From a virus (taxonomy: Duplodnaviria > Heunggongvirae > Uroviricota > Caudoviricetes), in the IMG/VR virus record IMGVR_UViG_2896601577_000004: a stretch of DNA of 11,947 nt; one strand, given 5' to 3'. This document shows, piece by piece, positions 3,599-3,895 of this stretch. The position numbers were made by a program, and so were the translations under genes. Numbering within the stretch: position 1 is the first letter of the stretch; each line of letters opens with the position of its first letter. The notes under the pieces were generated by a model. It was not told where the DNA came from. It saw only the letters and a list, made by a program, of their open reading frames with translations, and ran no database searches.

Positions 3599-3659
3599 GG
3601 AATCGAACCCGCATCATCAGCTTGGAAGGCTGAGGTAATAACCATTATACGATGCCCGC
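3599..3659 (-). tRNA. tRNA-Gly (anticodon UCC), 3'-truncated: the first 61 nt are present, the last ~14 nt of T-arm/acceptor are replaced by the IS911 left end
   Basis: Minus-strand sequence GCGGGCATCGTATAATGGTTATTACCTCAGCCTTCCAAGCTGATGATGCGGGTTCGATTCC is near-identical to recalled E. coli glyT up to the T-loop, then runs straight into the IS911 inverted repeat. Confidence 0.7.
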
Positions 3660-3662
3660 ATA

Positions 3663-3738
3663 TGGTGCCGACTACCGGAATCGAACTGGTGACCTACTGA
3701 TTACAAGTCAGTTGCTCTGCCTGCTGAGCTAAGTCGGC
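3663..3738 (-). tRNA. tRNA-Thr (anticodon UGU), 76 nt, CCA encoded
   Basis: Minus-strand GCCGACTTAGCTCAGCAGGCAGAGCAACTGACTTGTAATCAGTAGGTCACCAGTTCGATTCCGGTAGTCGGCACCA folds as a cloverleaf with anticodon loop CTTGTAA; close to recalled E. coli thrU. Confidence 0.8.
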
Positions 3739-3740
3739 GC

Positions 3741-3817
3741 TGGCCCACCACCGAGGACTCGAACCTCGCACCGTCAACTTAGAAGGTTGATGCTCTATCC
3801 GGATGAGCTAGTGGTGG
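3741..3817 (-). tRNA. tRNA-Arg (anticodon UCU, reads AGA), 77 nt, CCA encoded; unusual C1:G72 acceptor pair
   Basis: Minus-strand CCACCACTAGCTCATCCGGATAGAGCATCAACCTTCTAAGTTGACGGTGCGAGGTTCGAGTCCTCGGTGGTGGGCCA folds into a full cloverleaf (D stem GCTC/GAGC, anticodon stem TCAAC/GTTGA, T stem CGAGG/CCTCG). Confidence 0.7.
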
Positions 3818-3818
3818 T

Positions 3819-3895
3819 TGGTGGCCCTTGCTGGACTTGAACCAGCGACCTGGCGATTATGAGTCGCTCGCTCTGACCAACTGAGCTAAAGGGCC
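3819..3895 (-). tRNA. tRNA with CAU anticodon, most similar to tRNA-Ile2 (lysidine type, reads AUA) but tRNA-Met cannot be excluded; 77 nt, CCA encoded
   Basis: Minus-strand GGCCCTTTAGCTCAGTTGGTCAGAGCGAGCGACTCATAATCGCCAGGTCGCTGGTTCAAGTCCAGCAAGGGCCACCA resembles recalled E. coli ileX; one A-C mismatch at the top of the anticodon stem. Confidence 0.65.

Follow-up and report, generated by a model that had tools for sequence, protein, structure and literature searches.

The 11,947-nt stretch of viral DNA analysed here (IMG/VR record IMGVR_UViG_2896601577_000004, assigned to the Caudoviricetes; hereafter the window) carries, at positions 3599-3895 of its minus strand, a tightly packed group of transfer RNA (tRNA) genes. 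This group is very probably what survives of the tRNA cassette of a lambdoid prophage, one of the ipaH-bearing family found in Shigella and enteroinvasive Escherichia coli (EIEC). The locus is an already known, ordinary lambdoid prophage cassette in a decayed state, and its annotation should read three prophage tRNA genes plus one tRNA-Gly pseudogene truncated by the insertion sequence (IS) IS911:

3819..3895, minus strand: tRNA-Ile2 gene, anticodon CAU, ileZ/ileX type (ARAGORN; Rfam 70.5 bits; CCA encoded)
3741..3817, minus strand: tRNA-Arg(UCU) gene on an argN-type phage backbone (ARAGORN; Rfam 56.4 bits; CCA encoded)
3663..3738, minus strand: tRNA-Thr(UGU) gene, a thrU copy (ARAGORN; Rfam 69.8 bits; alignment to K-12 thrU and thrT; CCA encoded)
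3599..3659, minus strand: truncated tRNA-Gly(UCC) pseudogene, nucleotides 1-61 of a glyT-like gene (alignments; partial Rfam match)
about 2351..3598, minus strand: IS911 (IS3 family), the left end of which cuts the Gly gene (99.6-99.8% identity to annotated IS911)

The three complete genes were called on the minus strand by ARAGORN as CAU, Arg(TCT) and Thr(TGT). Each has a full cloverleaf with a 7-bp acceptor stem and covers positions 1-71 of the Rfam model RF00005, with a score above the gathering score of 29 (E-values from 4e-14 to 3e-10). No open reading frame (ORF) of at least 50 aa overlaps 3599-3895 on either strand, and PGAP annotates identical E. coli arrays as Ile-Arg-Thr-Gly, with the same 77-nt boundaries for the Arg gene. 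The initial annotation, which had proposed ARAGORN as a check on the CAU and Arg genes, described four tightly packed tRNA genes with CCA-encoded ends. The packing is confirmed, the spacers Ile2-Arg, Arg-Thr and Thr-Gly being A, GC and TAT (1, 2 and 3 nt). Encoded CCA is present in three of the four genes; in Gly it has been replaced by IS911, and the fourth gene is incomplete, with 61 of its 75 nt.

Identity of the Gly element to glyT and to its intact relatives stops at window position 3599, exactly where the IS911 left end (TGAAGTGGCACACTG) starts, so that the fragment is left without the 3′ strand of the T stem, the 3′ strand of the acceptor stem and the CCA. ARAGORN made no call here, and the Rfam match is confined to model positions 10-63 (31.5 bits, E = 0.0023) instead of spanning the full length. 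When the fragment was folded together with the adjoining IS sequence, the structure was no better than that of shuffled sequences (z = +0.67); folding of the intact relative gave a cloverleaf (z = -2.64). The array as first described, a complete and functional Ile2-Arg-Thr-Gly operon with CCA on every gene, does exist in intact relatives, and the gene spacing, as well as Gly up to nt 61, matches that description. For the window, however, the loss of the Gly acceptor stem and T arm makes it very improbable. The Gly/IS911 junction recurs in two independent NCBI assemblies and is therefore not a one-off assembly error: CP026867.1 is 100% identical to the window, and CP026866.1 has the same junction but IS66 sequences beyond IS911.

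The missing 14 nt of Gly are absent from the whole window; the sole near match, at 7984 within queH, has 2 mismatches and is due to chance. We therefore rejected a simple insertion of the IS that would have left the rest of Gly close by. The right end of IS911 abuts a 5′-truncated glycosyl hydrolase family 1 (GH1) gene, and there is no target-site duplication. Together with the lost 14 nt and the comparison to CP026866.1, this indicates that IS911 entered the Gly gene and that IS-mediated recombination later swapped the downstream DNA. A scan of GTDB species representatives returned 0 matches to the Gly/IS911 junction and 0 to the junction of the IS600 described below. Before the breakpoint, the fragment differs from glyT by one change, C19U, and the same base (C19T) is its sole difference from the E. 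coli prophage arrays. In E. coli CFSAN029787 an otherwise identical cassette has a fourth gene with the anticodon TAC (locus L002, 3342-3413; called tRNA-Val); this gene lacks CCA and has lost 1 nt from its 3′ acceptor strand. The Gly slot seems prone to decay in several lineages.

As the initial annotation had stated, the Thr and Gly genes are nearly identical to chromosomal ones: Thr differs from K-12 thrU by two D-loop changes (U16C and U20C), and the Gly fragment from glyT by the one change given above. This 97-98% identity to thrU and glyT is what could recommend an origin of the array as a fragment of the chromosomal thrU-tyrU-glyT-thrT-tufB operon, or as a tRNA-borne attachment-site duplication. 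The window, however, has no tyrU, thrT or tufB, and Thr and Gly are separated by the 3-nt TAT spacer rather than by tyrU and a 124-nt spacer as in K-12. Moreover, the two genes lie downstream of Ile2, Arg and a Q-like antiterminator gene, in a prophage order common to many phage records. The spacer and tyrU comparison and the prophage synteny refute a chromosomal operon fragment, as had been argued initially from the absence of tyrU, and we give this origin next to no credence.

The closest counterpart is the Ile-Arg-Thr-Gly cassette of E. coli/EIEC lambdoid prophages (for example FDAARGOS_944 and VL7S7), which matches the window at 100% in the upstream region and throughout the three intact genes, and is preceded by the same genes (queH, hok, DUF1367, DUF1364, DUF1133). 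In those prophages a complete Gly gene is followed by holin, lysozyme and structural genes, whereas the window has IS911, a frameshifted DUF1133 gene and IS600. Three relatives share the order DUF1367-DUF1364-DUF1133(Q-like)-tRNAs-class II holin-lysozyme, followed by structural genes, and the window is colinear with the relative E. coli prophages except for insertion sequences. In one relative, ybhA and pgl flank the prophage, which carries ipaHb. In the FDAARGOS_944 prophage this type III secretion system effector gene stands at the prophage end (locus L130, 43761-45587).

A second counterpart is the ileZ-argN-argO cassette of Shiga toxin (Stx) phages (AP012530.1), which occupies a like position downstream of the late antiterminator and upstream of late or cargo genes; in Stx2 phages it lies between Q and stxAB (Q-ileZ-argN-argO-stx). 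The two cassettes have in common an ileZ-type first gene (3 differences), a C1:G72 argN backbone in second place, a 1-nt Ile2-Arg spacer and a TTGCA-17-TATTAT promoter 9 nt upstream. They differ in the second gene (UCU/G73 in the window versus UCG/U73 in Stx-phage argN), in the following genes (thrU-like and glyT-like versus argO), in the Q-type gene, which in the window is DUF1133, and in the truncation by IS911. The ileZ-argN-argO set was reportedly described for phage 933W by Plunkett et al. in 1999; our literature search on ileZ/argN/argO returned nothing useful. Genes for tRNAs downstream of Q have been described in the lambdoid phages SfI, Sf6, ST64T, PS3 and P21, and rare codons are offered as the rationale (PMC3636060). 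The synteny in relatives and the Q-adjacent position, as in Stx phages, bear out the view of the initial annotation that this is a phage-type set of rare-codon tRNAs, and the alignments against phage and host genes that it called for gave an ileZ-like CAU gene, an Arg gene on the argN backbone, and Thr and Gly genes like thrU and glyT.

The initial annotation overlooked how far the prophage around the tRNAs has decayed: it is dead, riddled with insertion sequences, and the late genes that the tRNAs would have served are gone. Upstream of the tRNAs the minus strand reads, in order, QueH, hok/sok, a small gene, DUF1367, a truncated YbcO/DUF1364 gene, IS600 and DUF1133:

7666-8352, minus strand: QueH, epoxyqueuosine reductase (tRNA-modification enzyme)
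7283-7608, minus strand: hok/sok type I toxin-antitoxin locus (Rfam sok, 116 bits; Hok ORF 7283-7495)
6746-7033, minus strand: small gene
6109-6708, minus strand: DUF1367 gene
4652-5914, minus strand: IS600-like element, complete, with a 3-bp target duplication GGA (IS map)
4085..4638, minus strand: Q-like antiterminator gene, DUF1133, with a weak Phage_antitermQ match (Pfam)
934-2319, minus strand: GH1 gene, 6-phospho-beta-glucosidase type, 5′-truncated (GH1 Pfam match from profile position 20)

DNA alignment with two E. coli relatives places a -1 frameshift, a 1-nt deletion in a G5 run, at about 4545-4548 of the Q-like gene, and protein comparison of the N-terminus indicates that residues 1-35 are scrambled; from its sequence, the DUF1133 gene is a pseudogene in this window. 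IS600 sits 13 nt upstream of the DUF1133 ATG and truncates the YbcO/DUF1364 gene (5879-6109). The cassette still lies downstream of a Q-type gene, in the order seen in its relatives, as a lambdoid late-region cassette would, but no lysis or late gene follows on the same strand anywhere in the window: IS911 and the truncated GH1 gene stand there instead. The cassette is thus a late-region member by descent, and its context has been destroyed. Two neighbours deserve separate mention. QueH shares an early-right operon with the tRNA cassette and is kept in intact relatives, and the hok/sok locus appears intact inside the otherwise decayed prophage.

To turn to the individual genes, the CAU anticodon is compatible with either elongator Met or Ile2, the tRNA in which lysidine modification by TilS redirects decoding. 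TilS uses C4-G69 and C5-G68 as positive determinants, and TmcA, which makes N4-acetylcytidine (ac4C) in elongator tRNA-Met, uses C27-G43 (PMC2500205). The acceptor stem of the CAU gene (GGCCCUU/AAGGGCC) supplies both TilS pairs, whereas metT has U4-A69 and A5-U68 at the same positions. The TmcA determinant is not present in the CAU gene: its 27:43 pair is A.C, compared with G.U in ileX and C-G in metT. In alignment, the gene has 3 differences from Stx-phage ileZ and is far nearer to that gene and to K-12 ileX than to metT, and PGAP labels identical copies tRNA-Ile. The assignment as an Ile2 gene of the lysidine type, favoured over Met in the initial annotation, is therefore supported by its sequence elements.

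The Arg gene has C1 paired with G72, the discriminator G73, and A20, C35 and U36, A20 being assigned from the alignment of its D-loop AUCCGGAUA to AGUUGGAUA of argU. When aligned with argN, argO, argU and the APEC O1 variant, it shares with the argN of AP012530.1 the D-arm UAGCUCAUCNGGANAGAGC, the T-arm GCGRGGUUCGAGUCC, C1:G72 and C2:G71; the window form can be described as UCU/G73/A3:U70 on this backbone. The identity elements for arginyl-tRNA synthetase (ArgRS) in E. coli tRNA-Arg are A20, C35 and U or G at position 36, and A20, C35, U36 and G73 of the window tRNA fit recognition by this enzyme, so far as its sequence predicts.

To place this gene within its family, we surveyed the first 120 IMG/VR matches listed for the argN-type D-arm, to which the following counts refer. 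The C1:G72 backbone occurs there with the anticodon UCG and U73 (the argN type) in 63 copies, with UUU and U73 in 13, and with UCU and G73 in 8, seven of which equal the window gene exactly. The commonest array order is Met-Arg(tcg)-Arg(tct), with 61 occurrences, followed by Met-Lys-Thr-Gly (9) and Met-Arg(tct)-Thr-Gly (7). C1:G72 and C2:G71 do not vary across 32 unique backbone sequences, which do show compensatory changes at pairs 3:70, 4:69, 7:66, 27:43 and 30:40. In a 15-sequence alignment 95.9% of the cells pair, and 6 pairs are changed on both sides versus 0 in all slid controls. The compensatory changes argue that argN-type tRNAs are under structural selection. Copies of the window gene with at least 95% identity are found in 16 of 5426 complete E. 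coli genomes (identical in 10), with a median of 3 per genome and all annotated as tRNA-Arg; this exact variant is therefore uncommon in E. coli. The initial annotation had singled out C1:G72 as an unusual trait of the Arg gene. The C1 start stands, but the pair is not peculiar to this locus: judged by its invariance in the 32 sequences and its presence in Stx2-phage argN, it is a fixed hallmark of the known phage argN-type family.

In some sister cassettes (APEC O1, locus L006, 2615-2691; 13 IMG/VR loci, for example L010 and L013) the C1:G72 backbone in the second slot carries the anticodon UUU. These genes, called tRNA-Lys, have C33 in place of the universal U33, together with U73, an apparent Arg-to-Lys anticodon switch.

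Host tRNAs with C1:G72 are the tRNA-Pro species (proK, proL, proM), which have the first base pair in common with the window Arg gene. In E. coli tRNA-Pro, C1 steers RNase E to cut straight after CCA and G72 is a determinant for prolyl-tRNA synthetase (ProRS); a G1 to C1 change in pheV is lethal (PMC8860583). The window Arg tRNA departs from tRNA-Pro in its UCU anticodon, in having G73 where tRNA-Pro has A73, and in carrying the ArgRS elements A20, C35 and U36. On the basis of that work we judged mischarging by ProRS unlikely, because of G73 instead of A73 and the non-NGG anticodon. By the same analogy, the argN backbone might be a phage-specific, re-targetable chassis, in which C1:G72 and C2:G71 could direct a one-step RNase E cut like that of tRNA-Pro and the anticodon is swapped to suit codon demand or to replace tRNAs destroyed by nucleases. 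We hold this idea to be improbable. Were it true, the cut after CCA would permit maturation inside arrays spaced by 1-3 nt, the swaps among UCG, UCU and UUU would follow codon demand or make up for tRNAs lost to Arg- or Lys-directed nucleases, and the UCU/G73/A3:U70 form of the window would be one such derivative.

An anti-defence role was also considered, in which the cassette would replace host tRNAs lost to tRNA-targeting defence systems with nuclease-resistant ones; the hypothesis has been published in general form (PMC10264068). Examples of such targeting are P2-OLD on tRNA-ThrU, colicin D on tRNA-Arg and PARIS on tRNA-Lys. P2-OLD stops lambda by cleaving the host's tRNA-Thr(UGU), and lambda is rescued by phage-borne tRNA-Thr(UGU) genes whose products withstand it (PMC12445682); the window cassette derives from a lambdoid prophage and includes a Thr(UGU) gene, and the Arg backbone is strongly unlike host argU outside the anticodon loop, its anticodon stem included. 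However, resistance to P2-OLD needed changes in the anticodon arm, and thrU itself rescued little or not at all (PMC12445682), whereas the Thr anticodon arm in the window is that of thrU, with both CNG motifs and a full-length stem. P2-OLD evasion by the Thr gene was rejected because of this identity. In addition, the anticodon loops of all four genes are those of ileX, argU, thrU and glyT, contrary to the loop mutations that the general hypothesis predicts (PMC10264068). We therefore consider an anti-defence role for this cassette decidedly improbable, although the Arg anticodon stem, which departs from that of argU, leaves some room for resistance of that one tRNA.

Two candidate expression signals lie upstream of the array:

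3905..3933, minus strand: sigma-70-type promoter-like site (consensus scan; -35 TTGCAG at 3933-3928, 17-nt spacer, -10 TATTAT at 3910-3905)
3984..4010, minus strand: intrinsic-terminator-like hairpin with a GCCCGC/GCGGGU stem, 5-nt loop and U7 tail (fold)

The promoter-like site ends 9 nt before the 5′ end of the first tRNA. Its hexamers, their spacing and the distance to the tRNA are kept in a Stx2a phage and in APEC O1 despite diverged flanks, and across 30 unique IMG/VR upstream variants TATTAT is invariant, with TTG at 17 nt and 9 nt to the tRNA. Such a phylogenetic footprint speaks for a predicted sigma-70 promoter belonging to the cassette itself. The hairpin was missed by the terminator scan and revealed by direct folding (ΔG -14.3 kcal/mol, z = -4.71; none of 200 shuffles reached this stability). 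It lies about 50 nt further upstream than the promoter, between the Q-like gene and the tRNA promoter, which is the position of a tR′-type terminator, and hairpin-plus-T-run elements are also found upstream of the array in relatives. The hairpin would suit the terminator of a late operon, to be overridden by Q.

With a promoter 9 nt before the first gene, the cassette would probably be transcribed as one short precursor, probably in lysogens, with additional read-through from the late promoter during lytic growth. RNase P cuts at each 5′ end would then separate the tRNAs, since spacers of 1-3 nt leave no room for RNase E sites, and 3′ exonucleases would trim the 1-3-nt trailers back to the encoded CCA. 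As read from the sequence, none of the four genes allows its -1 nucleotide to pair with the discriminator, which should make the RNase P sites unambiguous. Processing from a common precursor, deduced from the tight packing in the initial annotation, is consistent by analogy with valV-valW, which have a 4-nt spacer and are separated by RNase P only (PMC2190699).

To assess codon supply, we set the annotated genes of an intact relative prophage, 10,520 codons in all, against a 50-kb piece of the K-12 chromosome with 14,635 codons. The four codons matched by the intact cassette are all enriched in the prophage: ATA (11.0 versus 3.2 per 1000; odds ratio 3.5, p = 4e-14), AGA (7.2 versus 1.5; odds ratio 4.8, p = 7e-13), ACA (13.8 versus 8.6; odds ratio 1.6, p = 1e-4) and GGA (14.0 versus 8.9; odds ratio 1.6, p = 2e-4). 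The ipaHb cargo gene of the FDAARGOS_944 prophage contains AGA at 19.7 and ATA at 11.5 per 1000. In intact relatives, Ile2 (CAU, modified with lysidine by host TilS) would read AUA, Arg(UCU) AGA, Thr(UGU) ACA and Gly(UCC) GGA, and the extra tRNAs would raise supply for host-rare codons enriched 1.6- to 4.8-fold in the prophage genes. In the window, in which IS600 lies upstream of a frameshifted Q-like gene and IS911 has taken away the final 14 nt of Gly with all that followed, only Ile2, Arg and Thr could still be made, from the cassette promoter, with no phage late genes left to serve.

Three points weigh against this account of a codon-supplying cassette whose surviving genes can still be expressed. 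First, AGG (7.7-fold) and CGA (about 2-fold) are also enriched in the prophage without a matching tRNA in the cassette, so the codon match is partial and correlative and could reflect a general AT-rich codon bias. Second, the 100% identity to the intact-prophage copies would fit recent decay as well as selection. Third, the truncated Gly gives no RNase P site and the transcript would enter IS911, so maturation of the Thr 3′ end may be impaired.

Some of the same evidence suits a silent relic, in which the three genes would be neutral leftovers of a dead prophage, not usefully expressed and of no gain to the host. The frameshifted Q-like gene, IS600, the two IS911 copies, IS629 and the missing lysis and structural genes all speak of decay, and tRNAs identical to those of intact prophages give no independent sign of purifying selection in this lineage. 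On the other hand, the promoter is conserved and the three cloverleaves are intact while neighbouring protein genes have decayed, and the AGA and ATA codons abundant in Shigella/EIEC-type cargo such as ipaH could still give the tRNAs a use. We regard complete silence as unlikely, but it keeps an appreciable share of our expectation.

The remaining IS content of the window frames the relic. A second, partial IS911 (8427-9397, plus strand) lies in the opposite orientation, is 100% identical over 971 bp and is cut at 9397 by IS629. The left ends of both IS911 copies face the 4.8-kb prophage remnant from the tRNAs to QueH and bound its two sides; the inverted pair looks like the product of an IS911-mediated inversion or deletion. 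An IS629/IS1203-type element (9398-10708, end sequence TGAACCGCCCCGGG) is nested with the truncated IS911 on one side and a left-end fragment of a second IS600 (10701-11105) on the other, and contains an ALIL frameshift pseudoknot (Rfam match at 10256-10372, minus strand, 120 bits). On the other side of the tRNAs, the GH1 gene is trapped between the right end of IS911 and an IS2 end (GGGGCAAATCCA at about 917; region 1-917). At the right end of the window are two phage-integrase fragments (11184-11534 and 11666-11947, plus strand), which in the source record adjoin an ATP_bind_3 (TtcA-like) gene just past the window; this neighbour suggests a Rac-type integration site. The assignment of the host as Shigella-type rests on the IS2/IS600/IS629/IS911 content, the ipaH-prophage relatives and the Shigella plasmids at neighbouring CP0267xx-CP0268xx accessions.

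For the argN-type family, the invariance of C1:G72 is a tidy result that ties in with recent work on C1 of tRNA-Pro, and no new mechanism is shown by it; a processing role of C1 in these tRNAs is a modest question, and the single route by which the finding could exceed the routine. For the locus itself, there is little significance beyond correct annotation. Within that compass, the relic cassette of this lambdoid prophage would add AUA, AGA and ACA decoding, through its three surviving genes, to a Shigella-type host with virulence genes rich in those codons, and the tRNAs could modestly aid the expression of AGA/AUA-rich, horizontally acquired virulence genes.

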